Positions 4,510 to 41,375 of a stretch of 64,000 nt of DNA are shown piece after piece. The notes below the pieces were generated by a model that was not told the origin of the DNA, did not search any database, and saw only the letters and a program-made list of their open reading frames with translations. Made by a program: the position numbers and the translations under genes. Every line of letters starts with the position of its first letter. The first letter of the stretch is position 1. The DNA comes from Psammoneis japonica (Eukaryota): positions 372,001 to 436,000 of the forward strand of contig QPGO01000006.1 of NCBI GenBank assembly GCA_008632985.1, given 5' to 3'.

Positions 4510-4753
4510 AAGAAGTATTAATATTGGCGGGACATGGATGCCAGTCCTTCGAAACAGTTTCTCAGGCATACTTCCTTCAAGCTCGATTGTTAGTCACGAT
4601 AGACACAAATTAAGAGTAATCCGTTGAACTATCCTGTTCGATTCCATGTTTTTCAGTTTCCTGACTCCTGATTTCTGATTCCACGCGCAGGTTCGCGCAA
4701 AGCGTTCTTTGAGTTTTTGGCGCAACCTCGCTATTTCTCTCAAACTCCTCTCC

Positions 4754-5350
4754 ATGACAACATTTATGATGCCACCGCTGCTTATTCACATGGATGCCTT
4801 GCTGTTGGCCATGGCGTCATCGACGGATAATTTTACTGTTGGTTTTTCGGTAGGAATTGTTGGACAAGCGTTGCCTCTATGGGCCAACATGTTTATCGCT
4901 GCGTGCAACGCGGCGGGTGCGTTTTTTGCGTCTCATGTTGGAACAAGCATGGCCAAGACGGTTCCAACAACAAGCCTAGCACCATTCTTGGCGGCTGTTG
5001 CATTTGGATATTTGGCGTTTCAAGAATACAAAGAGTATCGTTGTAACATAGAGAAGAAGGAGGGAAAAAGCAACAAACCGAGAATTCTATGCAAGGAAAA
5101 CGTGATGGGATTAGCCTTGCCCATGACGTTCAACAATCTTGCGGGCGGTGTGGCCGGTGGTGCGGTGGGCATGTCCCCCATCTTGTCGGCTCTATATGCA
5201 CTGTTTGCTTCTATAGTGACAATGGCAATCGGACACTATCTCGGACAGCGTCTTGGAAAACAAACGAAATGGATAAATCCAACTCTCTGCTCGTCCCTCT
5301 TGTTGGGAGCATTGTGCGTGTTGACACTCCTGGAAAGCATGCCGTTTTGA
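4754..5350 (+). CDS. MntP/YtaF-like membrane protein (putative Mn2+ efflux family)
   Basis: Several TM helices with the two half-repeats LLAMASSTDNFTVGFSVG and LALPMTFNNLAGGVAGG. Start may be 4790. Confidence 0.7.
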   Translation: MTTFMMPPLLIHMDALLLAMASSTDNFTVGFSVGIVGQALPLWANMFIAACNAAGAFFASHVGTSMAKTVPTTSLAPFLAAVAFGYLAFQEYKEYRCNIEKKEGKSNKPRILCKENVMGLALPMTFNNLAGGVAGGAVGMSPILSALYALFASIVTMAIGHYLGQRLGKQTKWINPTLCSSLLLGALCVLTLLESMPF

Positions 5351-6098: not shown

Positions 6099-9000
6099 TT
6101 ACTTTACCGGTCTGCGCATGTTGCAGTTTTTGCATAGTTGCTTTTCTTCGTAATTTTGCACCAAGTTGTTGTACTGATCTGAGTTCCAAATATCCAACAA
6201 GCACGTCTCTTTGTCAGAGATGTTCCCAAACCTACCAAGGCTGAGACGTTGCTCGTCAGGAGCGCAACACGGATCAAACCTACCGCTGTGATTCACCCAG
6301 GCTTCTCGACCTAAAAACGGACAGACGGTGTCTACGTCGTCATTAACCGCAGAATGATCCGATTCTTCATGCGGGACGCCCAAGTCCTCAAAGTTCTCAA
6401 GTCGGAATGGTTTGCCACTGGGCCGGCTGCGCTCAGATGCAATCTCTCGACATTTGCTGGCAATAGCATTCCATCGATTTACGCTATCCTTGCTACGCCG
6501 TAAGTTCTCATCCTTGATTTCTCGAAAATGAGCCCAGAGATGATGTCCTTTCACCCTGTCGCAGTCTTCATCGATGGCGAACTTTACCAGGTCTGGGATC
6601 TCCTCCAGATTAACTTCCATGAATGTCAGCTGCAACGTTACAGAACAATAATTTCCTCCATCTTGCTTCGCAATGTCATTCCGAATTTCAATAAACTTTC
6701 GCAAATTTTCAATCTGTTTATCCAAATTTGATCCCTTCATTATCTTTTCCTGTGTTTCCTGTGTTATCCCATTCCAGCTGATCTTAACGTCGGACCCAAC
6801 AGGAATCACTTTCGGGGCCCAGTACTCGACACCACCGTTATAAAAATGACCCATTCGTTGTCAAGTTCAACTTGACGCCATGTTCATGACAGAGGCTTAG
6901 AATACCGGGGAAATCTTTGTAGTACAAAGGTTCACCCATAGTCGAGGGAATGATTTCTTTCAGGCCTTTCGGAGCTAAGTCAGCCACCGTATTTCGGATT
7001 ATTTCGAAATCCATACGGCGTTTACGAATTTTGTCCCTTTTACGCCGTTCCTGGTGAGGGCTGAATTCAGAGTGCTGCTCACACATTGTGCAGCTGAAAT
7101 TGCAATCGTCAGGATTGGTATCGAAAGTAACCCTCCACGGAACTAGTAAGGGGTCAATCGAATGCCGCTTGGATTCTTGAGTGGCATCGCTTGCGCATGC
7201 GACTTCTGAGTTCACCCTTGCATATGCTGCTGTATACCAGCTGCTAGCTGTAGCCCTCGCAATAGCACTGCGGCTATCCTTTCTTTGTAAAGTTTCAAAC
7301 AGATCCAATAAAAAGTCTGTGTGCTGCTCGATACAGGGGATTTGTCCATCGGGGCTGTAGAGATAACCTCGTTCTCCAAGATACCTCATTCCTGTTGGTT
7401 GCTCTACAGCCTTTCCCATTGCCTCGGCGAGAGAATCTGCATCGCGGTGTTGAAAAGTCAAACCATTCACGGCATCTTTTACAAGCTCGCCCATTCCACC
7501 GAAAGATGAGGTTATAACGGGTACATGGGCCTGCTGAGCTTCATGAATAACCAATGGACTATTTTCTTCCCAGATTGATGGCACAACGAGACAATCAATG
7601 CCATTGAACACCTTGCTGACAATGTCCTTGTTGACATATTCCGGTTCCCAGGAAAAGATATCCCCCGCACGAGAGTCGGGACACTCCGTGATCATTCTTT
7701 GAAGTGATTGAGATGAATTTGCCTCCTGTCGACCAAATATCTTCACACGAAATGGAATCTCGTCGTTGCTGTTGCTTTCGCTGGTCTTCGTGACCTTCAG
7801 CAACTTCAAAGCAGCTTCAACCAGGAGATTGATGCCCTTTCCTGGCTGATGGCGTCCAATATATGCGAAAGTATATGGGCTATTTTTCTCAGTAGAAATG
7901 GACTCGAGAGGGATGTCCAGAGGCGTGCTTGATGATGTGGCCTCGTCGCGATGCTTCCGGTTCGCCAAGCGTTCCCGAAAGAAACCATATGGCTCAACGA
8001 TGACTTTGTCGTCTGGAAGAGAAAATTCGTGGACAAATTTGTTGCGAAGGCGCTGCGAAGGCGCGATGAAGGCATCAATATGCTCACAAGCATTTCTAGT
8101 TGCTTCCATTCTCGACGCTATCCAAGACGTCCAGTACCGGTGGTCTTCGTCGTCTTGAGCGATAGAATTGTTGTCAAGTCCTGTGCCGTATCTGCCGGCG
8201 TAGCAATGACGCGCGCACTTGTCATTCTCTTGGCCGTCACAGAGTTTCCACGTGTGACTCCGAGCTGGTCCTGTCTGCAGGAATTGTCCCCGTGGACACA
8301 TCAGCCAGAAATCGTGTAAAGTATATAGAACTTTGGCACCAGCAGCTTTGGAAACAGAGGGTAGGTTGAGCGATAGGTGGTTCAAGTGATGCAAATGCAC
8401 AATGTCCGGCTTCACCGTGTCGACCACTTCCAGAAAAGCCCTGTCGACGTCTTCCGAAAGGAATCTGAAATAAGGGGCCTCGCGGGAGTAGTTCATGCGG
8501 AATACCGGAAGCTCGCTATCCAGCTGATCGACTGTCCTTCGGATCTCAAAGTCAGGCCGGTACGGGTCGTGCTCACGAGCAAATACATGAACACTCTCAC
8601 ACTCGCCAGAATTCTTCAGTTGCAATGCGACCATTTGCGCGTAAACCTCACTGCCGCCGTTAAAGTCTGGCGGGTAACCGTGATTGACTACCAAAACCCG
8701 AGGCTTTGGTTTGTTTCCATGATTACGCCCAAGAGTAGAGAAGTGCCGACGAAGAACTCCATGATACGTTGCTGGGCCAGATGTTCCTCTTCTCAGAGTA
8801 CACGTGAGTCCGGTTCTGGTGTGGTAACGTTCCTGAAGCTGCTCAAATCGCGAGGAATCCTGCAAAAACGGATCACCCACAAGAGCTACGACTGCTCCAC
8901 CGCCGCCTCCTCCGGATATTTTAGCGCCAATTGCCCCATGTGTACGAAGTTCGTCAACAAGAAAGGATGTTGCATCTGTGTCAAGTCCGCACGCTTTGTA

Positions 9001-12000
9001 TCCAGCATGTGTCTGCGCCATAAGTTCACCCAATATCCGCAAGCCCGGTTCCAGAGGAATCGCATAGTTGTGTACGCCTCGAAGTATATTTTCGAAAACA
9101 TGTACTCTGTGGTTCTCTTCGATAGGAAAGGATGTGGCGGCTCGAACTGGGAACGTAACCTTAGATTCCACGTCACAAAAATCGAAACCCCCTGGAAACT
9201 GGGCTCGTATCTCACCAGAAGACATGGCTTCAGGCAGGTAACCTTTGTATTTTGTGAGTTGAGAAGGAGTCATGTCGCAAAGGTACTGTATCTCTTGTTT
9301 GCTGATCTTTTCTAGGGCGGCTTTGCCCACAGCAGCGCCAACCCGGACGGATTCGTAAGCAGTTGATGCTGTGGACCGTTTCACTCCGGATTCCAAAGCA
9401 ACCACGTGAAGCCCTTCAGGCAAAGGGAGACTGTATGTGGATGCATCCGAAACAGGCAGCCGGCATTGGACTTTCACAAGAGGGTATTCAATCGTTTTTG
9501 TCCCCGGCTGGGTCACGGCAAGTTGATCTAGAATGCCGCAAGGTGCTCCAACTACGTTATTCTCAACTTCTTTGCACATCATCGACACCGAATGCGGCTC
9601 TAACATATCTGGAGGCAGTTGTAACGCGTTACCGAGCGAAATAGCAGTTGCAACTTCAACTGCTGCTGACGAAGCCAAACCTGTGTTCCACGGAAGATCG
9701 CTGATTGTGACGACGGTGAAATCTCTTCCTTGTGGAAACTTGCCCACTTCTGAGCTTTGCAGGATTTGATGAAGTATTCCTGTAAGTACAATCCCCAACG
9801 ATCAACTACATCAGACGTAATGAACTTTTCAGACAGGGAAGCTCTTAACTCAGCGTCGGTTTTCAGTCGACCCATTGCATCAAACAGTTCCATGGTGGAG
9901 ACAGAAGTCTCGCGCACTTTGAAGTCTCCCGTAGCAATAGCTCTTGGCATCTCAGAGAGCTTGTCCACGTGCATACACGCTAGACGAACTGTACCATGCG
10001 CCTCTCCACCGACACTGTCTTTGACAACAGACATTGCCACCACCCGCTCTGCTGTGGGGTGCTGAATGGCTTCGCTCCCTGAGTGGTCTGCAAAACCACA
10101 CATCAGATCCATGCGACCTGGAGAGCTACTGATATGTATCTCGTCGGAGACAGAGCCGCTGCCGTCGTCTGTGGAAAACAAGACGTGTCGCAATGTAGCT
10201 GGAATATGGGCGCTGTTTTCTCGTTGGACCGCACCCACACAACGCAGGATTTCGTCCCTGTCTTGAAGCTCCAGAAAGGCTACCGTCGACCGATCAGGAG
10301 GTCGGTAAAGACTTTCATTATTTGCAATAGTTTGTAGAGATGTGAAATAAGCCTTGGGGTTTCCGATGTCAAGGCGGTGTCCATCAATTAGACAACCAAA
10401 TAAGAATCCATTGTTCTGAAGTGACTCTCGAAGAACTTTTCGTAGATCAACTTCGTCAGGATCAGCGATCGCATGCTTTTCGTTCTGTAGAAGAGTGAAA
10501 ATAGAAGGAGGCAATATTTCAATACCCTGTGACGGAAACGAATAACATACGTAAGATACCAAACAGAGAATTCACTCAGCACAAAAAGGTACATCACGAG
10601 ACCAACTCTGTAAAACTGACCAATTGCGATATGTATTTCGACGAGTCAGCCGCAGTCACCCGAAATGATTCGTAGTCCGATTTCGGTTTTTCGATCATCT
10701 GGTGAACCAGCCATGGACTACCTACTCGGTACGAAGACTGCTCGCTACGCAGCAGTCCAGTATGCGCCACTTCAGATTCCATACAGAGCGCGGCACCAGT
10801 CAAAACAGTATTGCGCCATCCACTGAAACTTGAGTTCGCGGGTAGCTCTTGATAAGCTGCAAGCATATTTTTGACACAATCGGCAGAAAAAACATGGTCC
10901 CCTAGTGCTAGCACAAAAGGCTCATCGCCAATGGTTTGCTCCGCCGCCAGAACGGCATCTCCAAATCCTCTTGCTGTGTGCTGCGTGACTATTTGTAATT
11001 TCACTTCCTTGCTCCCAGTGGCATGCTGCTGCCGACTGTACTCCTGCAAAAACGCCTCTAGCAATGGGATCTGTGGGGGAGTCGACACAATATATACTTG
11101 ATCAACAGTATGAGAAGCGTCACGAAACTGATCAAGAATAAATGACAAAGCAGGTCGAATTTCCCACATCGCCGACAGAGAATCTGCACCATTCATTTTA
11201 GGCCCGCGTGAAATGATCGGAAGCAGAGCTTTGGGGGTAATAGAGGATTGCGGGGCCATTCTGGTACCCAATCCTCCTGCCGTAATGACGGCTTTTCGGA
11301 CCGTCGGAACTGTTGCCGCTTCAATTAAATGAGACGGCGAAACGTCGTCGAGGGTTCGAAAGCTATTGCCATCTTCGGTTTTCACCGATGCTGGAGCTGT
11401 CTTAGTCAGCATGTACATCTCGTGTCCATTGAAATGTTCGCGACCAGCAATTTGCCATCCAGACGATGTAAATAGGTGATCCCACTGCTCGGGATTACGT
11501 TCGCGTGATCCCTGAAGTGCGAACATGTGCAACGACAGCAAAGCATGCAGTTTGTTTGGTGTAGAAACACGATCGACCACACAAACACGTGCATCGTCAG
11601 GGCTTAAGGAATGAAGACGGTCAAGGATTGCGGTTGCTCTGTGGTCGGGCCAGTCGTGCAATACCCGCGACATCAGATACAGGTCAGCTTGTTGCAACTT
11701 TCCATCAAACAGATCTCCAACTTTGTATTTTATAATGTCGCTCGGGTCGACTGACTGATGCGCTTGTGCATTTGAATGCGTAGACGAGGAAGCTGCCGAC
11801 CCTTGGGAGGAAAGTGCGTTTTCAACAACTTCAGGGCGATCGACGCAAATGAATTCTTCTGTGTCTTCGAAGAGCCCACTACCCCGCACCTCTCTCAAGA
11901 GTGATCCGTAGCCTCCGCCCATATCGACGATCGTACGAATATCTTCATTCCGGCCATTCAGCAATTTTGACAGTACTACGCCAGCTCCTTGCCAATCAGT

Positions 12001-13236
12001 ATCAGCGTAGGTCTTGAGCACGCGTTGAGAGCGTTCGAGTGATGCGGGATCTTCAGCTAGATCAGCGAAAGTATCACAATTGAGCGACTGTCGGGGGACT
12101 TGGTGCCAAGCTTGCAAGTATCGGTCTTGAAGCCAGTATCTGCACCGTTCTTCCGTGATTCTGTCAACACAACCATCATGAGACGACGCAGTAAGGAGAA
12201 GACCCCGATTGAGTAGCTGAGATGCTGGGATACCAATAGCTGGGTCTTCTCGACTAATCAGCCCTATCTCCTGGGCACAATCCTTCAAAATCTCCCGAAA
12301 CGTCTTCCAGGCAGAGGAGGGTAGTGTTTTTGGATGGTCGTTGTGCAAGACATCATGTTCGAGAATATGTTTCAAAGCAAACGATTCCCAGTACCGTTTT
12401 GACAAGTGCTCGAGTGCTACTGCACTTGACAGCAGCGACTCTCCCAAGCGTACCAACAACTTTCCATCTTCATCCACAACACCCCACTGCCCATTGCGGA
12501 ATCGTACTCTGGCTTGGCCGTTGTAGTGTGGCTCTGCGAATAAGTACCTTTCACCTCCACCCACTTCATGCCCTGCCTGGTTCATGTAAAACCAGCCCTC
12601 TCCGTCTCTAACTAGAGCAATTCCTTTATGGGGTACAAGGTCTTCGATAACGGTCGATTGCATCCTTGATGAGCACGTACCCCATTCTTTCCCGTAGATG
12701 TCGATTATCATTGGATTACCATGAAGATCATACACTACACTGTGGCCAGCGGAGTTTGGATCTCCAGCGTAAGAAAACGGACCCAACGTCCTTTCTCCGT
12801 TTTGATCGATGTAAAAGTAGCGATTATCGCCATCGCGGACAGCGCTCCTGGCTACGCCCTCGCCCGGCACATCGTGAAAATTGCCGCACCAACTATAGCG
12901 ATCCTCGTAGACGGGTCGGCCTGTCCAGTCAATATGGAAGAATTTATTGTCAAAATCCATCACCGCGGCCCGTTGCGCAGCGTAGAAACCAAAGGTACGC
13001 TTGTATCGGTGATCATACAGGGGAGAGCAACTTCGGTCGATGTGATAAGCACCGCCGCCATTGCTTTCCAGCACCGCTGCGACACCATCGTGAAATGACA
13101 AAATCTCATCAAATTTTTTGCCCCCTCGAGGCTCAGAACTTGAGGTGAAAAATACCAAATGTCGCGACGGTTGCAACGAACATCGCCTCGTAGTGCTTTC
13201 AAGGCACTTCTTGAAATACCTTCCACTGAGAAACAT
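6099..13236 (-). CDS. Giant multidomain enzyme (~2,350 aa): WG repeats + O-methyltransferase + sugar nucleotidyltransferase + GHMP sugar kinase + GT4 glycosyltransferase + radical SAM/SPASM
   Basis: Motifs in order: FHDGVAAV/HYNGQARV..WGVVDEDG; IVDMGGGYG, GDLF, SRVLHDWPD; KAVITAGGLGTRM..PKALLPI, ALGDHVF; PGRMDLM..ADHSGS, GLASSAA, GAPCGILDQ, GAKISGGGGGG; HGYPP..GGSE, TLHDFW, PSIWEENSPLVIHEA; CNFSCTMC; CPFL..PCC..CKNC. Four ORFs are joined by one intron (10527-10620) and two single-base indels (~9783, ~6843), both inside domains. Confidence 0.8.
10527..10620 (-). other. 94-nt spliceosomal intron in the nucleotidyltransferase domain
   Basis: TTG|GTCAGT...TTTCCGTCACAG|GGT. Splicing gives SQL-GIEILPPSIF, in frame. 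Confidence 0.8.
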
Positions 13237-13613
13237 CGTAAGAAGTATTCCAAGATTGGCTTGTTTTTGACCAAAGAAATACTCCTGTCTACTTTGGACT
13301 GCGATGCCCGAGACACTACGCAAGATGCACTCCACTTACGTGGCACTTGATCGCAGAACTTCGAATCCAAAATTTCAACTAGTACCGCACATCAGTAGAA
13401 AATTCTCACCTAAAAACTTGAAAATCTTTGACGCGTTCAAATCACCGTTGCAGTTTGCGTTACTGTATTCCAGGTGGCACCGTGAAAACTACTGTACAAA
13501 TCAGCCATCAGCAGTACACACGCGTGAAGTCAAAGGCGTCGTATCCGAAATCCAAAAAGCAGAAAGGGAATCTCCTGTGTGCGTGGACACAATAAACCCG
13601 TTCAATTTGGACA

Positions 13614-30796: not shown

Positions 30797-33700
30797 TTAA
30801 CCTTTTGGCTTGGTCGCCCCTGTAGACTTTTGCCACCGGTTGTTAATCTGTAAAGAAAGAATGCAAGACGTCCGTCGTTAGCGTGGCTCTTTTGCCGAAA
30901 AAGTGGATCAGGATAGGTGTTATGCACTTACTCGGTTGGCGGTAGATCCCTCGGACGAATCTCCAGACATGGAATACATGAGTGAATCGATTGTTAAGGA
31001 CGCGTCGCCACCCGCTGTTCTTGTACCGGCTTCTTCGGTTGACTCGGACAACAGAGAAGGAATGTCGAATCGCCGTTGCCGTCTTGGTGAGTCGAGTCCA
31101 TTCGTGCTTGTCGTCATTGGGTACGTTTTTGTACCGGGTTCTTCGGTTGTCTCTGACAACAGAGGAGGAAGGTCGAATCGTCGTTGCCCCCTTGATGACT
31201 CGAGTTCATTCGTTCTTGTCGTCATGGGGTACGATGTAACCAAATTTGGAACATAGTCTTTTGGAGGAGACGATGAATCCCCTTCCACTTTTTCTTCTTC
31301 GTTACGATTGGTGTCCTCTTTGTCACCTGTCGGAACAAACTTGATACTTGCGCCAGTCTCTGACGATCGACTACTTTTTCCCGAGCTCGCTGGTGACGCA
31401 TAATCTGGCTTGTTTGGTACCAAAATGCTGGTGCCCGGTTTGACACCTGTAGGCACAAACTTGATACTTGACCCTGTGCCTGTCGAGCTTGCCGGTGATG
31501 AGAATTCTGGCTTGTTTGCAGAAAGATACTGCGCAAGTCCTCCTCCGCCCGAAGACTCCCTACCGTGTGCTGCCTCCTCTGTACCTCCCCTACAGAGGTT
31601 AGCGCAACTAAACATCTTATCTTCTGCAATCGTGTGAAGACCTTCGGTTTCCGTCAATAGGCTCTTCGCCGAACTGGCTTGAATATTGGAATATCGTGCC
31701 TGCGCCTCGTCAGCGGAGCCCACAGTCAGACCGTTTGAAAGGTCATAGTCAGCATTGAGATCCGTGTTTCCTTTTTCCATTGAATTTGGACTCATAAAAT
31801 ATGGCACGGCACTGCTGCTTTCTTTATTGGACTTATCGGGTGACGAAACATGGCTTCCTTCATCATACAATGCTTGAAACTTGCTCCCAGTGGAAAGCGA
31901 GTCGATGCTGCCTTTGCTAAAGAGAGAGCTTCCGTTAGAATGTCTCGGATTCGATACCCTTTTCCATATAGCAAAAACTGCCATACCAACTCCAACAGTT
32001 GCAGCGGTGATTGCAACGACAAGTGAAGCACGTTTAACGCCATTTGCATCGCTACCAGACTTGGTTCCTTCCTGCGCACCCTCGACTCCAACTGCAGCGT
32101 TTGGCATTTCAAAGAAACTTGATGACTCTCTTAGTGAATCAACATAGCCGGTGAAATTAGTTTCAAATCCATGACCCACAGCTTCTGCGAATGGAAATGA
32201 ATCGACTCCAGGGAAAACATCACCGATTACATTCATTCCAACTCGGATTTCACCGCTTGCCTGCAATCTCCTTTGAAACGATTCGTATTCTTGACCCAGC
32301 ACGTTAACACTTCTAATATCAACCGAAAACGATTCTACTGGTGGAAGGTTTTCCGTGATAAATCTCCTTGAAATCGCTTCAAACTCCGAGATAGTGTCAA
32401 CATCCATCGTACCTTCCGAGAATGTTTCCACAGATACAATCTGAAGGGTAGAGTATTGTCGTGGTCCAGGACTAGGATGCGACGAAGGCAAAGTTGTCGG
32501 TGCTGGGGACAACACATCAGGATTTGATTCGGGAGTTGAAGGCATCTGAAAAAAGCGTGATGACTCTCTCAGTGAATCAACAAAGCCGGTGAAATTAGTT
32601 TCGAATCCATGACCCACAGCTTCTGCAAACGGAAAAGAATCGGTTCCAGGGGAAACATTACCGATTACGTTCATTCCAACTCGGATTTCACCGCTTGCCT
32701 GCAATCTCCTTTGAAACGATTTGTATTCTTGACCCACCACATTTACACTTGTAATGTCAACCGAAAATGATTCTACTGAAGGGATGTTCTCCATGATAAA
32801 GCTCCTTGAAATCGCTTCAAACTCCGAGATAGTCTCAACATCCATTGTACCTTCCGAGAATGTCTCAACTGATACAATCTGAAGGGTAGAGTACTGTCGT
32901 GGCCCAGAACTAGGACGCGACGAAGGCAAAGTTGTCGGTGTTGGGGACAGCACAACATCAGGGTTTGATTCGGGAGTTGAAGGTGCCGCTGATGATGTTG
33001 AAGACTTAGGTAATGAAGGTCCCCTGGACGGCGCCTTGGAACGCGAACGACTTGAAGAAGGGGAGAATGAAGGTGACGACGTCTGAGAAGGTTGGAGAGA
33101 TTGTAGATCTTCCGAAATGTCTGATGAAGTGGCTGATGGAGTTGGTTCTTCCGTAGAAGTTGGTTCTGAAGGCTGACTCGATGGTATCTTAGAAAACGAC
33201 GGCGTCGTGGAAGGCGATGCTGATGGTTGCTGCGACGGAATTTGACTCGATGCTGCAGATGGTGTCCTTGATGGCGTTGTTGACGGCGTCAAAGATGGCA
33301 CACCGCTCAGTTCATCGGATGGATTGGTTGACGGTTCCGTGCTTGGTGCTGCACTTGGGACTCCCGACGGACTTGATGATGGAGCCAGTGAAGGTTTCGC
33401 GGAAGGCACATCACTCGGTCCAGCTGATGGAGTTGTAGATGGTAAATCACTTGGTTCGGAGCTTGGTTGCGACGACGGCGATGCCGTGGGCACCATTGAA
33501 GGCATCGAAGACGGAGCAGTCGATGTAAAATCACTAGGCGCCGAACTTGGTTTTGACGACGGTGCTGTTGACGGACTTGATGATGGAGCCACTGAAGGTT
33601 TCGCGGAAGGCACATCACTCGGTCCAGCTGATGGAGTTGTAGACTGTAAATCACTAGGTTCGAAGCTTGGTTGCAACGACGGCGATGCCGTGGGCACTAT

Positions 33701-36700
33701 TGAAGGCAACGAAGACGGAGCAGTCGATGGAATATCACTAGGCGCCGAACTTGGTTCTGACGACGGTGCTGTTGACGGCATTGAAGATGGCATGACACTC
33801 GGTTTAGTTGACGGAGTCGTCGATGGTGAAACACTAGGCTCTGAGCTTGGTTGTGACGACGGCGTTGTCGAGGGAACTGTTGAAGGAATTGAAGATGGCA
33901 CATCACTTGGTGCGGCTGATGGGGTAGCGGAAGGAACTATGCTTGGCGCAGTACTTGGTGCCGCGGTGGGTGTGGTTGAGGGAGCAGTAGACGGTGTCAA
34001 TGAAGGCGTATTACTCGGTGGAGAGGATGGACTCGTTGATGGTACACCTCTAGGCTCCACGGAAGGGGTTGTAGATGGTGTCGTTGAAAGTGTCAGCGAT
34101 GGCACGTTACTCGGTTCCGATGATGGAGTCGTCGACGGCACATTGCTTGGTGTAGTGCTTGGTACGGCTGAAGGGAAGGCAGATGGTTCAGTCGAAGGTG
34201 TCAGAGATGGCACATTGCTTGGTTCGCCCGATGGTTTAGCTGATGGTATTTCACTAGGCGACACTGACGGGAAGGAAGTTGGTACGGTCGAGGGTGTCAA
34301 TGTTGGCGCATCACTTGGTTTACTCGATGGAGCTGCTGATGGCACATTGCTGGGTGACTCACTTGGTGCTGATGATGGTGTAGTTGATGGCGTCGCTGAC
34401 GGTACATCACTTGGTCCAGCTGAGGGGCTCCTTGTCGGAAAATCACTTGGAGTGTCAGACGGAATTGTAGATGGAATATTGAAGGTCGTAGGTTCAGACG
34501 ATGTCGTTGGAGCATCGGATCCCAGCCTCGTCGGGCTCTGTGACATCGATGGAGAATCAGATGATGGACTCGGTGCCACAGATGGTGTACTTGATGGCCT
34601 TGTTGAAGGCGTCATAGATGGCGCACCGCTTGGTGCTGTACTTGGGGCAACTGACGGACTTGGCGACGGTGCCAATGAAGGTTTCATGGAAGGCACATCG
34701 CTCGGTTCAGTTGATGGAGTAGTCGACGGAAAATTACTAGGCTCCGAGCTTGGTTGTGACGACGGTGATACCGTGGGAACGGTAGACGGCACTGAAGATG
34801 GCATGACAGTTGGTGTAGTTGACGGAGTAGTCGAGGGGAAAGCACTAGGCTCCGAGCTTGGTTGAGACGACGGTGATACCGTGGGAACGGTTGACGGCAC
34901 TGAAGATGGCATGACAGTTGGTGTAGTTGACGGAGTAGTCGAGGGGAAAGCACTAGGCTCAAAGCTTGGTTTTGACGACGGTGTTGTCGAGGGCACTGTT
35001 GAAGGCCTTGAAGATGGCACCTCGCTTGGTGCAGTAGATGGAGCTTTTGGTGGAACAGCGCTTGGTGCAGTGCTGGGTGCCACAGAAGGTGTGGTCGAGG
35101 GAGCTGCAGATGGTGTCAGGGAAGGCATGTCACTCGGCGCAGAGGATGGACGCATTGATGGTACACCACTAGGCTCCAAGCTTGGTTGAGACGACGGTGA
35201 TGCCGTGGGCACCATTGAGGGTGCGAACGAAGGCCTGTCACTCGGTTTCGAGGATGGATTCACTGACGGCATATGGCTTGGAGTTGAGCTAGGTGATGCT
35301 GTGGGGACGGAAGATGGTACAGTCGAAGGTGTCAGAGATGGCACATCACTTGGCTCGCCCGATGGCTTCGTCGATGGTGCGTCACTTGGTGTTGAGCTTG
35401 GCGATGCTGAAGGGAAGGAAGATGGTAACGTCGTGGGTGTCAGGGTTGGCACATCACTTGGTTTACTCGATGGAGCTGCTGATGGTACATCGCTTGGGGT
35501 CGAGCTAGGCGATGCTGACGGGGTGGTAGACGGCGATAGCGATGGCATAAAACTTGGTCGAGACGATGGAGCCATTGATGGAAGATGGCTAGGAGTCTCG
35601 CTTGGTACAATGGATGGTTCAGTTGATGGCGCCGATGAAGGCGTCAGTGACGGTACATTACTTGGTTCAGATGATGGATTAGTAGAGGGAAAAGCGCTTG
35701 GAGTGCCAGATGGAAATGTGGATGGAGTGTGGGAAGTCATCAGTTCGTCGGCTGGCTCACCAGATATCGACGGCGACTCGGATGCAACGTTTGTAACAGG
35801 TGGCACCGGTGGTAGCTGTGACGGGGTTGCTGTAGGGGTTTCCGACAACACCGGTTCACCTGCTGGTCTGTTCGAAGGTAAGGGCAACAATGACGGTGGT
35901 AGAGATGATTGTGATGACCCTGAAAAGGAATCAGTAGGTGGGCTGGACGGCGCCGGTGACGGTGAAGTTGGTTCCAATGTAGTATCGGACAGGCTCGAAG
36001 ATGGAACTGGTGTGACCGACGGCGACGAAGCAGGTGTTTCCGATGGAGGATCTGTCTGTGGTCTTGAATGAAGGGATGATGGGACCAGAGACGGCGACAT
36101 TGAGGGTGAAGTTGGTGCCACTGTCGTATCTGATACTGGTAATTTCGAAGACGGGGCCGAAGGGGCTGGAGAGGATGTAAAGTCCGGGAAACTGGATTGT
36201 AGAACCTGAGCAAACATGACGTTTTCAAGCCCTTGATCCTTGAATTCAACCAAGCTGTTTACAAAAGGTTCGAGATCTTGTAGCATACTCCATACTTTCT
36301 CTCTCAGATCATCTGGCGGGGCATAGTCGCACTTTACCGTGATTTCCATAACCATCACTAACTCGACTCCAATGATTTCTCGATGTAGATCACGGGGTCC
36401 AGTCTCATCTATAGTCACCTCTGCCTGTCCCAAGAATAGTTTCCTCTTTGATTCCGGAGCTTCGAATTCCTCCAAAACGTCTGATGTCACGGAATCAAAC
36501 TCCACAGACTTCTCATAATAGTCAACCAATTTTGAAAGGACAAAGACGTTCATAGCTTGTTCAACGTTTCTTAGGCTTTCCTCTTGAAGTATCCCTCCCG
36601 TCTCGAATAGAAACATTTTGAATGCCGGGAAAAAAATGGGACCACCCTTGCAATGCGTCGGATTCAATGTTGGAGAGGTTGTGAAATCAGGTAAACCTGC

Positions 36701-37258
36701 TTTAAGGACCTGGGCATACATGACGTTGTCAAGCCCTTCATCCATAAATGCGCCCAAGCTGTTTACAAAGGGATCGAGATCTTGTAGCATGGCCCACACG
36801 TTTTCTCGCAGATTATCAGGCGACGTAGAGTCACAGTTTACCATGATAGCGATGATCATGTTTAACTCCACTCCTATGACTTCTCGGTGGAGATCTCGGG
36901 GTCCATTCTCGTCTATGGTCACCTCTGCGTGTGCCAAGAATCTTTGCCTGCTTAATCCTGGAGTGAATTCCTTTTCCTCTAAAACGTCTGATGAGACTGA
37001 ATCAAACACCACAGATTTCCCGTAGTAATCAACCAGCTTTGAGAGGAGAAATAAGTCCATAGCCTGTTCAATGTTGTTCAAGCTCTCCTCTTGAAGTAAC
37101 CCTTCCGTCTCGAAAAGAAACATTTTGAATGCCGGAAAAATGACTGGGTCGCCCCTGCAATGCTTCTCAACTTGGGCGTTGGCCTTCCTTGCAAAGAGGG
37201 CAAACACTAATCCCATGACGCAAAGGATCATCTTTGTCCATGACCTTTTTCTTGTCAT
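30797..37258 (-). CDS. Large type I membrane mucin-like (PS/PT-rich) surface protein
   Basis: Signal peptide, duplicated N-terminal domain, long PSxxPS repeat, duplicated juxtamembrane domain, TM (LVVAITAATVGVGMAVFAIW). Predicted 84-nt intron 30848-30931 (CGA|GTAAGT..TTTACAG|ATT) and last exon INNRWQKSTGATKPKG*. Confidence 0.85.
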
Positions 37259-37754
37259 CGTGGGAGAGAACTCGATCAGCGGTATGTTTACCAGTTGGTT
37301 TCTTTTCTTTCTGTTGTACAGTGTATGTTGTTTGTGCTAAATTTGTGTGTGGCTCTTCTCATGCCTCGTCTCGTCAGTTTGTGAGCGCGAACGCCCAAAC
37401 AGAAGGCAAACGGATATCATCACACCGAATGTGATTACATAAATAAAATATTAAACTTTAAGAATATAAAAAATGAAATGTTTCAGTTTGAAACCGTAAC
37501 GGTTTAATGAGTGATAATGAAGGTCGAAAACGCAAATAAGTATGTCTGCAATTACTCAGAACCTTTATAAACGAAAGAAACCGTCGCGCTGTCTTTATGT
37601 CGGATTTTTATATGTAGCTTTGTCAATGTATAATTCGTTTAAGATTTGAAATTGGCGTATCATATTAATACTCTAATGCTCTAATTAAAATTGAAATTTA
37701 GAAAAAAAATGGCTGTATCCGAGCGACGGCTTGCCCTACAGTACGGTACGACAA

Positions 37755-37988: not shown

Positions 37989-40955
37989 CTAGAAACCAAT
38001 TGTGTCAGGGAAATGTAAATTAGTGGAGTTTCCGCTTGGACTTGCAGATGCACGAATTCGTTGGTTTGTCCTCTCTATCGTGTTGTCGAAATCATCTCCG
38101 ACCTGGGTATAAACACCAATTTTGTTAAGAAATGATCAACAATCAAAGCAAGTTTACTCTTCAGCAAAGTTTTCAGCCTTACTCACCTTTGCGGATGCTG
38201 AATCATCAGACATGGAATATGCCAATGAGTCAAACGTACGAGAACGGCTAAACCCGAACGCAGCGCTTTCTTTCGCGGTAGTGTCGACATTTTCCAATGA
38301 TGGAGTACGAGTAAGTGCCGTAGTCGTATAACTTAGCTCCTTTGGAGATTGTTTTCTTCTCATAAAAGAGTTTGAGAATCGATTTCGTGGTTTTTTCCGT
38401 ACCAAGTTGTGCGCTCGTGGTGTTGACATGTCTGACGCCAAGGTCCTTGGGGTGCCAGTTCCAGACGGAGACATTAAATAATCCCTTGATGCAAAACTAG
38501 TGTTACTAGGCGTGAGTTCCTCTGAGAACGTCTCAGCCAAAAGACTTTCAGCGACAGAATATGACTTGCGATCACCGGTGCGCGACCGTGTTGTGTCAAG
38601 CTGTAGGAACTGAGTCCCAAGGGGAGTATTCTGTGATTTTCTCGAAGCAGAAGATCCGCCATATGATGAACAATCCTGGGACTTATTTGCTCTGCTTTCG
38701 TTAATGGAAGGTAGGGCCTGACGTGCCCCGGTTTTTACTTCATCCAACATCTGTGTTTGAGAAAGGCATTCGTGAGGCGGGGGGGGGGGGTGAAGGATTT
38801 CAGCGACAAAGGATAGTGAATGATAATGACTTACGGTTTCGGCCTCGTGTTGTTCAAGTACTGACGCTGTCACTTTTGCCTCGAGACTACCGCTAAGACT
38901 ATTTAGTTTTGCGCTCGAAACAGATGATGCCACACTGTTTGATTCCAGACTATTTGGGCTCACAGGTCGGGAGCTTGTTGAACTTGGATTGCTTTCCAGG
39001 CTAGAGCTCCAGATATCATCAGCAGTGATAACTTCCCGACTCCTTCTACTCCTGCAAAATAGAAATGCACCAAGGGCTAGTACAACGGCGCCACTGGACA
39101 CTGCAATAGCGAAAATGACGCTGGGAAAGCTACCGGAATCTCCTGTAGTAGTTGTGTCGTCTTTGAGACCATCACTAGCAGCGTTGGGGGCCGCCCTCTC
39201 AGTGGTCTGAAAGAAATCTGCCGCTTGGTTGAGCTGGAACTGAAACGATCCAAAGTTTGACATTATGACTCGTTCAATAGCAAAGGAGAAACTTGATGCA
39301 TTCATAAAATCTTCTGATGGTTCCATATTAGCATTTACGTCCATTTCAACGGTGAGCAGATAGGGAGCGGGTACATCTTGTTTGACGATTTCGACGGAAG
39401 TTACATCAAGAGAGCCTTCTATTGCAGCTGCCAAATTGTCAGAAATAAATTGTTTTGTTGTTGTTTCGAATATGGTTATTGTGGCATCGTCCATTGTTTC
39501 GTTTTCGGATGATGTTTCGACCGTCAAGGCCTGTCGTGTGCTCAAGAGTAGGTAGACAGTTTCAGTCGGGGATTGACTTGGCGAAAGTGTCGGTGTCAAA
39601 GAAGCGATATCAGCAAGAGCGTCGGCAGTAGGGACTAGACTCGGGGGCGTTGTTGGCTTTGGAGACGGAGCGTCAGTTGGAGAAGCCGACGGGCTATCCG
39701 TAGGAGTGGCTGACGGTTCACTAGTGGGGACTAGACTCGGACGCATTGTTGGGTTTTGAGATGGAGCGTCTGTTGGAGAAACCGACGGGCTATCCGTAGG
39801 GGTGGCAGATGGTTTACTGGTGGGGACGTGACTCGGAGGCATTGTTGGGCTTTGAGATGGAGCATCTGTTGGAGAAGCCGACGGGCTATCCGTAGGGGTG
39901 GCAGATGGTTCACTGGTTGGTGTGCTTGAATGCGAAGAAGTCGGAGAACTTGTCGGTGTGCTTGAAGGTGAGTCTGTCGGTGAAGCAGAGGGAGAAGTCG
40001 ATGGAACAGCCGTAGGACTCGCAGATGGCAATGCAGTCGGATATGAGGAAGAAGTCTCTGTTGGTGGAGCTGATGGAATCTCAGAAGGAGACGTAGTGGG
40101 GAATGCTGAAGGTAGTGAGCTTGGGGTAGCAGTTGGAGTTCCGGAAGGAGTCTCTGTTGGGCCTTCCGATGGAGTAGATGACGGGTTTGCAGATGGAAAA
40201 GCAGTTGGAGATCCGGAAGGTGTCTCTGTTGGACCTTCCGATGGAGTACCAGACGGTGATGAAGTTGGGCTGTTGGATGGAACATCGGTTGGGTTGCTTG
40301 ATGGAGTACTAGTTGGGCTACTAGACGCACTTTCTGTGGGACGACTTGATGGCTTGCTTGTTGGTGTACTTGACGCATCATCAGTTGGATTACTTGACGG
40401 TGTGCCCGTTGGGCTGGTGGATGCGGTTTCCGTAGGCTGACTCGATAGCTTGTTTGTTGGTGCACTGGACGGCGATATAGTTGGCCTAAGTGTCGGCGCG
40501 CTCGTGGGACTGCTTGACGATTCCACAGTAGGATTCGTTGTAGGAGGTGTGGTTGGATCTAGGGTAGGATTTGACATGGGATCTGATGTAACTGGGGGGG
40601 TGGGTTCCGGGGTTGGTACCGGTATCGGACTGGAGGTAGGAGGATGAGTCGGAGGCTCGGTCGGCGGAAGTGTGCTATTGGTTTCAGGAGATTCTGTCGA
40701 AACAGCTGTTGGCGCAGGAGATGGCTCAGGCGCAGGACGTTTACTTGGTGACGGCGATGGCGGGGACGGTTGCGTTGTAACTTGCGGATCTGGTGGGTCA
40801 TCTTTTGCTGCATAATCGCCGCCATCTGTTGGCGCCGTTGTCGCTTGCATGTTCTCTGCATTTAATGACGGAGACGACGGCGATGGTGTCTGTGAAAACA
40901 CAACGTCCACTCCACTTCCCAGCAGCAGAATCAGCAGCGCTTTTCTCTTCGTCAT
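37989..40955 (-). CDS. Type I membrane mucin-like (PT/PS-rich) protein, paralog of the 30797-37258 gene
   Basis: Signal peptide MTKRKALLILLLG, PT/PS repeats, one juxtamembrane domain, TM. Predicted 84-nt intron 38103-38186 (AAG|GTGAGT..CCCAG|GTC) and last exon VGDDFD..PDTIGF*. Confidence 0.85.
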
Positions 40956-41375
40956 TGTTTTGCAAAGTAATGGATAAAAGGTATCGTAGGACAGCTTCAA
41001 AACAAATATTGCATTCGATGTTTTCGTCTCTGCGGTCGTGTGTTGTTCGTGCAAAAATGGACGGGCTCGAGCGGCGATGATTCATTTTGTGAGCGATTGC
41101 AAGTCATCGGATAAACAGAACACCAACGGACATTTCATTTCATCTTTTTTGATAGTGGTCTTTCCTGCAATATTATTGACTGTATACCAAATATAGAATA
41201 TTTCCAAAATTTTATTTAATCAACGGCTACTCACACATGAAAATTTCAAATGCATACTATATGTAAATGTACAATAATAATTAAATGTCGGATCGGCTTC
41301 ATAAATGTCGACCGGCGTGAGAGATTCATTTGATTTTTTTTTTTTTCCCACGGCCACCATCAGCAGCGACGACAC

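Follow-up and report, generated by a model that had tools for sequence, protein, structure and literature searches.

A 64,000-nucleotide stretch of Psammoneis japonica contig QPGO01000006.1 (GenBank assembly GCA_008632985.1, positions 372,001 to 436,000), referred to here as the window, carries on its minus strand, from 13236 down to 6099, what we take, with good confidence, to be a true gene from the nucleus of a diatom-like alga, encoding a multidomain protein in which the core of a prokaryotic gene cassette is fused to a sugar-activation module. The joined reading comprises 7,044 nucleotides, or 2,347 codons and a stop, and runs from the N to the C terminus through WG repeats, an O-methyltransferase, a GalU-like nucleotidyltransferase, a galactokinase-like GHMP kinase, a GT4 glycosyltransferase, and a radical SAM/SPASM domain, as assigned with Pfam. 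The locus is read as one eukaryotic gene and not as an operon because it has an intron, because its neighbors are eukaryotic (HMG box, patatin, CRAL/TRIO), and because fused full-length homologs occur in other algae. On this point the initial annotation of the stretch, which had proposed a single eukaryotic gene, was correct.

Gene model, homologs, and domain content

Four long stop-to-stop frames occupy the minus strand between 13335 and 6099, namely, 10594..13335, 9600..10571, 6838..9801, and 6099..6860, here called the first to fourth frames. The initial annotation had joined them through a clean 94-nucleotide intron and two 1-nucleotide indels. With the intron removed, one base added at 9783, and one base removed at 6843, they do form the continuous reading given above, and in the full-length homologs the BLAST coordinates are unbroken over all three junctions. 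The start codon was placed at the first ATG (13234..13236, Met 34 of the open frame 10594..13335), and the N termini of the Amphora protein P0203 and of two further homologs, P0005 and P0006, align within a few residues of this Met. The stop codon of the joined reading lies at 6099..6101.

When longer relatives of the third frame were sought, eight proteins of 1,742 to 2,458 residues with the same domains were returned. Full-length fused homologs (2,196 to 2,458 residues) come from Amphora coffeiformis, Ochromonadaceae sp. CCMP2298, Chromera velia, and unnamed records; a search for the same fusion in other algae had been suggested, and these three algae have it. The closest named relative in a cluster look-up is P0203 from the diatom A. 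coffeiformis (2,305 residues), with 57, 52, 63, and 70% identity to the four window frames. In the databases, such fusion proteins are called hypothetical, as is the Ochromonadaceae sp. CCMP2298 entry, or are misnamed. Gene callers split or misname the gene, and one Amphora fragment is labeled 'UTP--glucose-1-phosphate uridylyltransferase'. The expectation that the product of the pathway is uncharacterized was also borne out. The fusion is already in public databases, without a known function.

Contigs of two public runs from one sample (X1 and X2), possibly the source of the assembly, were aligned to 6099-13400; a third run, X3, gave no coverage of that stretch. One X2 contig joins 10525 to 10620 and thereby skips 94 nucleotides (10526-10619, equally 10527-10620; CT..AC on the plus strand), which is exactly the GT..AG intron that had been called at 10527-10620 on the minus strand. 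The intron is real, and the reading across it, ...SQL|GIEILPP, agrees with the homologs. The X2 contigs total about 30 Mb, the longest being 16 kb; the library type of the run is unrecorded, and we read X2 as transcript-derived. The X2 contig with the spliced junction extends 1,249 nucleotides past 13400, well beyond the start codon at 13236, which reflects either a long 5' leader or an overlapping neighbor transcript. At 10441-10442, two X2 contigs abut and the mean depth changes from ~24 to ~10, with no obvious reason in the sequence.

Both frame breaks sit where they had been claimed, at 9783 and 6843, and they fared differently. Behind 9783, the X1 and X2 contigs both insert an A (AA to AAA on the plus strand), restoring the frame (Y-F-T-G); the window has RWGLY|LTGILH at this junction versus DRWVAYLTGMIH in Amphora. 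Because both runs carry the extra A, the break at 9783 in the window is an assembly error or a minor allele. The other indel, at 6843, is unchanged in the contigs of both runs and is treated separately below. Position 10656 is T in the window and in X2 and C in the X1 contig. This substitution represents more than one haplotype or variant in the sample, and the culture or organism is not homogeneous there.

The domain order claimed in the initial annotation agrees with the Pfam matches, which score above the curated cutoffs, and with the homology of the WG repeats. The description of the protein as a six-enzyme fusion does not hold, since it has five catalytic domains and one repeat domain. 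The beta-propeller-like WG-repeat domain (12301..13113) was recognized by homology to prokaryotic WG domains, to which it is 32 to 42% identical, and to a phage WO gene, UC4; the WG repeat scores 24.2 bits in homolog P0005, slightly below the cutoff of 25.6. A model of the domain (predicted local distance difference test [pLDDT], 81.3) is all-beta, with BamB-type propellers as the best structural matches at a generic template-modeling score of 0.45. The class I O-methyltransferase (11452..11970, residues 456-628 of P0001) matches Methyltransf_2 with 73.3 bits against a cutoff of 22.3. The GalU-like nucleotidyltransferase is divided by the intron. Its N-terminal part (10621..11292) closes exon 1, carries the GGLGTRM...PK motif, and matches NTP_transferase with 32 bits (cutoff, 21.2) and NTP_transf_3 with 33.8 bits. 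Its C-terminal part (10317..10526) opens exon 2 and was delimited by contiguous alignment to P0133 and P0203; in P0006, the NTP_transferase match covers the equivalent region.

The galactokinase-like GHMP kinase (8767..10154), which contains the 1-nucleotide gap at 9783/9784, matches GHMP_kinases_N (38.1 bits) and GHMP_kinases_C (29.2 bits) above the cutoffs and has the motifs GRMDLMCGFADHSG, GLASSAA, and GGGGGG. The GT4 glycosyltransferase, of the GT-B type (7252..8700), has both Rossmann halves above the cutoffs (Glyco_transf_4, 48.7 bits; Glycos_transf_1, 71.5 bits), an E-x7-E motif reading EENSPLVIHE, and homology to phage WO. The N-terminal part of the radical SAM core (6844..7137) lies in the third frame, matches PF04055 with 36.9 bits (cutoff, 29.5), and contains an intact CxxxCxxC cluster motif, CNFSCTMC. 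The remainder of the barrel and a SPASM/twitch-type cysteine tail (6102..6841) follow in the +1 frame, that is, in the fourth frame, where SPASM PF13186 scores 38.9 bits against a cutoff of 21.5. The canonical SPASM motif has seven cysteines, and the five conserved in this tail are fewer. With the CxxxCxxC motif and both Pfam domains above their cutoffs, the protein belongs to the SPASM/twitch subgroup; in the window copy, the radical SAM domain is interrupted, an extra T shifting its final two-thirds out of frame. The five catalytic domains carry intact signature motifs.

Ahead of the conserved domains, the translation begins with a basic, Ser/Arg-rich extension of about 41 residues (13114..13233). 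A basic, acid-poor extension of about 30 to 45 residues likewise precedes the conserved domain in P0005, P0006, P0012, and Amphora P0203, and prokaryotic WG-methyltransferases start at about residue 30 to 35 of the eukaryotic proteins. The extension may be an organellar presequence.

The prokaryotic cassette and the Undecim Cluster of phage WO

The fourth frame has 1,313 relatives of 139 to 443 residues, most of which are stand-alone radical SAM/SPASM proteins of about 350 residues, 50 to 55% identical, from bacteria and archaea. In a scan of one genome per prokaryotic species, at least 577 stretches encoded a relative of the radical SAM part; the best 80 by likeness to one query were kept and searched by tblastn with a full-length eukaryotic homolog. 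A GT4 was present in 78 of these 80 loci and a WG domain in all of them. The order GT4, radical SAM, WG-methyltransferase on one strand was found in 78, and in 24 the GT4 and radical SAM parts were fused, giving one continuous alignment. GT4, radical SAM, and WG-methyltransferase are genetically tied throughout prokaryotes, in carriers that include Dehalococcoidia/SAR202, Myxococcota, Chlamydiota, Hormoscilla, Zoogloea, Thiomargarita, Nitrospinota, Latescibacterota, Planctomycetota, and archaeal metagenome-assembled genomes (MAGs). Clustering of open reading frames and a scan of representatives placed a histidine phosphatase directly after the WG-methyltransferase in 63 of the 80 loci, an NAD-dependent epimerase/dehydratase near the cassette in 57, and a UDP-glucose dehydrogenase in 12. 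A kinase or nucleotidyltransferase of the eukaryotic type was found by tblastn within 10 kb of none of the 80, and five cassette-bearing prokaryotic genomes gave nothing beyond weak generic matches to the kinase-nucleotidyltransferase module, in two of the five.

The free-standing cassette and the eukaryotic protein thus have the same three core parts, at 40 to 55% identity. They differ in that the prokaryotic genes are separate, or fused only as GT4-radical SAM, whereas the eukaryote has a single polypeptide; in that the WG-methyltransferase comes last in the prokaryotic operon and first in the eukaryotic protein; and in that the histidine phosphatase and epimerase that accompany the prokaryotic cassette are absent from the window. 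The initial annotation had explained the gene as a horizontally acquired cluster that became fused, and had asked for matching prokaryotic neighborhoods. Such neighborhoods exist for the three-part core, and this part of the gene derives from a prokaryotic cluster. Because the kinase and nucleotidyltransferase are not part of the cluster, the fusion of one acquired cluster is too simple an account.

Phage records searched by tblastn provided a second counterpart. The third frame is 38.9% identical over residues 368-986 of P0003 to a gene of Wolbachia phage WO MN180251.1 (E, 2e-118), the fourth frame (P0004) is 49% identical to the same gene, UC3 (E, 1e-76), and the WG domain of the window is 31.7% identical to the adjoining gene, UC4 (E, 2e-24). 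Rickettsia and Arsenophonus plasmids match the same GT4/radical SAM gene. As judged by these alignments, the core of the fusion is homologous to UC3 and UC4 (WD0613 and WD0614) of the Undecim Cluster, with the GT4 and radical SAM parts matching from end to end. In the parts of PMC9203015 and PMC4701759 that describe these genes, WD0613 combines a group 1 glycosyltransferase with a moaA/nifB/pqqE-type radical SAM and a SPASM domain, and WD0614 combines a KWG repeat with a type 2 O-methyltransferase; both proteins were detected by mass spectrometry and have functions that are predicted only, and a copy of WD0612-WD0618 is reported on Rickettsia plasmids.

Phage WO and the alga alike have GT4 and radical SAM in one chain and a WG domain followed by the same methyltransferase family. 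The alga differs in having a single polypeptide with the WG-methyltransferase moved to the front and the GHMP kinase and GalU-like nucleotidyltransferase inserted, and its gene is nuclear, intron-bearing, and not on a mobile element, unlike the phage WO cluster. By annotation, the phage WO GT4/radical SAM gene is flanked by a GlmU-like gene, an epimerase, hypothetical proteins, and allo-threonine aldolases. The algal kinase and nucleotidyltransferase had no match in the phage WO locus (L081), the GlmU-like UC1 included, at an E cutoff of 0.01, and when UC1, UC2 (the epimerase), UC5-UC8, and the histidine phosphatase were compared with the 64-kb window by tblastn, the WG-methyltransferase was the sole match. 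In one locus of the 80, L001, which lies nearest to the eukaryotic clade, the WG-methyltransferase is preceded in the same chain by a PhyH dioxygenase (L001:11041-13443). The description of the cluster in PMC4701759 gives WD0615, the gene after the WG-methyltransferase in phage WO, as a PhyH dioxygenase, and includes a PhyH dioxygenase and an ABC exporter by name among UC5-UC8, which the phage WO annotation lists as hypothetical proteins and allo-threonine aldolases. In view of the L001 fusion and the description of WD0615, the dioxygenase may belong to the same pathway.

The activation module has a different set of relatives. A word-based search with the nucleotidyltransferase-kinase part found no close stand-alone relative apart from fragments of the same eukaryotic fusion. 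With a 730-residue two-domain relative as the query, phmmer returned 4,279 representatives at an E value of ≤0.001 and 163 at ≤1e-30, most of which cover the kinase half alone and are proteins of 420 to 500 residues with 33 to 40% identity (Pfam run on nine). The best solved kinase relative is PDB 9ulx, 'AbGHMP' (E, 2.6e-42), for which a literature search found no publication; the only solved match to the GT4 is a sucrose-phosphate-synthase-like protein (E, 3e-6). Bifunctional sugar-1-kinase/nucleoside diphosphate (NDP)-sugar pyrophosphorylases, such as L-fucokinase/GDP-fucose pyrophosphorylase, combine a GHMP kinase with a nucleotidyltransferase and convert a free sugar to an activated sugar. 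The module follows the same logic as that enzyme is described to follow, and differs in that its kinase half is nearest to the extended galactokinase-like group of 420 to 500 residues.

For a fold comparison of the radical SAM part, a stand-alone member of the family was modeled (pLDDT, 90.1); the model gave VIA Z scores of 21 to 24 over 262 to 298 residues to solved SPASM/twitch enzymes. It is about equally like SuiB, BlsE, SkfB, DesII, PqqE, and anSME, the top matches lying within 2 Z units of each other at 13 to 20% identity. With SuiB, SkfB, PqqE, anSME, BlsE, DesII, and BtrN, the family shares a partial TIM barrel with CxxxCxxC and a C-terminal Cys-rich auxiliary-cluster domain. The modeled fold confirms the SPASM/twitch group and is silent on substrate class.

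A tree of the radical SAM tail was built from 96 rows by quick maximum likelihood (LG+G4, midpoint root), with the Shimodaira-Hasegawa-like approximate likelihood ratio test (SH-aLRT) as the only support measure. The 80 prokaryotic rows in it were selected from at least 577 as the closest to one query, and the label eukaryote-type was given to unnamed rows on architecture alone. All 15 eukaryote-type rows fell on one side of a branch with an SH-aLRT of 89. Two MAGs (L001 and L002), of a marine gammaproteobacterium and an archaeon, were the nearest rows to that group, followed by phage WO. Support for the grouping of the window was 98 with P0013 and 99 with Amphora and P0014. A single origin of the eukaryotic form would fit the tree, which goes no further than this and identifies no donor. 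Two fragments also grouped with the eukaryote-type rows: P0032, a GT4-tail and radical SAM fragment filed under the bdelloid rotifer Didymodactylos carnosus, and P0016, a radical SAM fragment filed under an Amoeba proteus transcriptome. These may derive from host genes, prey, or symbionts.

The extra T at 6842-6846

The T5 run at 6842..6846 on the minus strand has one T in excess of every homolog. The upstream frame reads TCA TTT TTA TAA through it and ends at the TAA at 6838-6840; removal of one T leads into the downstream frame. Across this junction, NLTTNGSF|YNGG in the window corresponds to NLTTNGSFYGGG in P0013 and NLTTNGSFYGRG in Amphora. The relatives P0013, P0014, and Amphora (80, 74, and 70% identical, respectively) are all in frame at the site. 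In the X1 and X2 contigs, the run is unchanged at mean word depths of ~61 and ~24. The extra T is probably real in this copy, which most likely gives a protein that ends about 95 residues into the radical SAM domain. The sequence beyond the shift continues for 247 codons without a stop and keeps 60 of the 61 invariant columns of a 12-sequence family alignment; upstream of the shift, the radical SAM domain keeps 32 of 32, for a total of 92 of the 93 covered columns. Because the downstream frame is undecayed, the change would either be recent or specific to one allele or strain, or it would not be real. A 24-nucleotide string from the window beside the T5 run had no matches in metagenome contigs, so that no independent copy from the same species was available.

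Among the rival explanations, the one that fares best, at a little short of an even chance, is a young pseudogene or hypomorph, in which every copy would carry the extra T as a fixed change, the radical SAM domain would be gone, and the pathway would be dead or cut short. The persistence of the run in both covering runs and the in-frame state of the close relatives speak for it, but the conservation of 60 of 61 invariant residues over the stop-free downstream codons means that any loss would be very recent. In addition, the T-to-C difference at 10656 between X1 and X2 indicates that several variants are present, and contigs mask minor alleles. A pseudogene or hypomorph at this locus would be compatible with our reading of the gene family as a fused, algal one.

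Alternatively, the T5 run could be a homopolymer error common to the assembly and the runs, leaving the gene fully intact. One or more indel errors or minor alleles of the assembly already affect this gene (9783), the downstream frame is conserved, and X1 and X2 are possibly the data behind the assembly. We nevertheless regard such an error as unlikely, since two separately assembled runs agree on the T5 run and yet both correct 9783, and since a run of 5 bases is short for a systematic error. A programmed +1 ribosomal frameshift at UUU-UUA-UAA, in which the P-site tRNA-Phe re-pairs on the next UUU and the full protein is made, is highly improbable. A shift by one base does leave UUU perfectly paired, no other Leu codon of the gene is as rare as UUA (16 of 209), a stop follows UUA directly, and the frame downstream is intact. 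However, the site is not conserved, with P0013, P0014, and Amphora encoding NGSFY in frame, and TTT-TTA occurs in frame at two further sites in the gene (TTT-TTA-T again at one of them), at which shifting would ruin the protein; no stimulatory element was seen, and none was sought. The unconserved site and the two tolerated TTT-TTA occurrences led us to reject this explanation. Finally, bacterial contamination or a misjoined operon, suggested by the prokaryotic closest relatives of three domains (50 to 55% identity for the radical SAM part), is next to impossible and was rejected together with a reading as separate genes, given the GT..AG intron removed in one contig, the lack of stops or intergenic gaps between domains, the flanking genes with HMG-box, patatin, and CRAL/TRIO domains, the same fusion in named algae, and the absence of the kinase-nucleotidyltransferase module from prokaryotic loci.

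Elsewhere in the window, the other large frames have HMG-box, patatin, CRAL/TRIO-N, SDR, or PDZ domains, or no domain. The downstream neighbor of the fusion gene (4679-5350, plus strand) has a weak match to MntP-like manganese efflux proteins, and no relation to the fusion gene was seen. Two open frames on the minus strand, 30920-37336 (2,138 residues) and 38154-41081 (975 residues), have no Pfam family except a PT repeat. Both consist in part of tandem repeats of 96 to 438 nucleotides, they coincide with a GC skew that is strong at 34-36 kb, and their products resemble repetitive proteins of the cell surface or of a secreted type.

Predicted chemistry and significance

The protein families of the fusion, from which every step below is drawn, suggest a pathway. 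The kinase would phosphorylate C1 of a free sugar, and the nucleotidyltransferase would convert the sugar-1-phosphate to an NDP-sugar, probably a UDP-sugar, from which the GT4 would move the sugar onto a small acceptor. The radical SAM domain would then abstract a hydrogen from the glycoside via a 5'-deoxyadenosyl radical and so oxidize, dehydrate, or rearrange it, and the methyltransferase would cap a hydroxyl. The beta-propeller may hold a substrate or partner, and the fusion would let intermediates pass from site to site. In prokaryotes, the presence of a histidine phosphatase beside the cassette hints that the acceptor or an intermediate is phosphorylated, by analogy with the GT4 and phosphatase pairs of sucrose-phosphate synthesis and of mycothiol synthesis. 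The prokaryotic epimerase and UDP-glucose dehydrogenase may supply a donor that the eukaryote would make by salvage. Taken together, we propose tentatively, and with considerable doubt, that the megaprotein could be a self-contained assembly line for a radical-modified, O-methylated glycoside that hundreds of bacteria and archaea, phage WO, and several algal lineages would also make.

Several points weigh against our main reading of the locus. The T5 insertion stands in the contigs of both runs, and as sequenced the full protein is impossible by ordinary translation; X1 and X2 share one sample, and their contigs lose minor variants, so that they may hide an intact second allele. With the library type of X2 unrecorded, its intron-less contig could in principle be DNA. 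The fold comparison cannot separate peptide-modifying enzymes (SuiB, SkfB, PqqE, and anSME) from those that modify sugars or nucleotides (BlsE, DesII, and viperin). The homolog P0005 scores at best 94.5 bits against the NCBIfam galactokinase equivalogs, whose cutoffs run from 226 to 509 bits (499 for the match with 94.5), the window passing only the GHMP superfamily domains, and P0005 reaches 63.4 of the 326.8 bits set for the GalU equivalog TIGR01099. As these cutoffs are far from reached, the sugar of the kinase and the nucleotide are left unassigned. The histidine phosphatase and epimerase partners were not found in the 64-kb window by tblastn. No characterized enzyme of the cassette was found, so that the proposals for donor sugar, acceptor, and radical reaction are guesses.

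The Undecim Cluster of phage WO has been much studied, and to our knowledge nobody has solved its chemistry. Published work already covers the cassette and its position in phage WO, and the eukaryotic fusion is present in sequence databases only. We found no literature description of the fusion; the parts of PMC9203015 and PMC4701759 cited above do not mention it.

Few of the uncharacterized gene sets that we have encountered are as conserved as the GT4-radical SAM-WG-methyltransferase cassette, whose radical SAM part is 50 to 55% identical across bacteria, archaea, and eukaryotes. The locus is a clear case of a prokaryotic pathway core becoming one intron-bearing nuclear gene common to distant algal groups, and the kinase and nucleotidyltransferase added in the same chain amount to a testable prediction of the donor substrate of the cassette. 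Culturable algae and single recombinant domains offer a route to the product of the Undecim Cluster chemistry. If the proposed pathway is true, the eukaryotic fusion would serve as a Rosetta stone, indicating that the Undecim-type cassette uses a UDP-sugar built from a free sugar, and algae would have taken over a prokaryotic metabolite of host interaction or defense.

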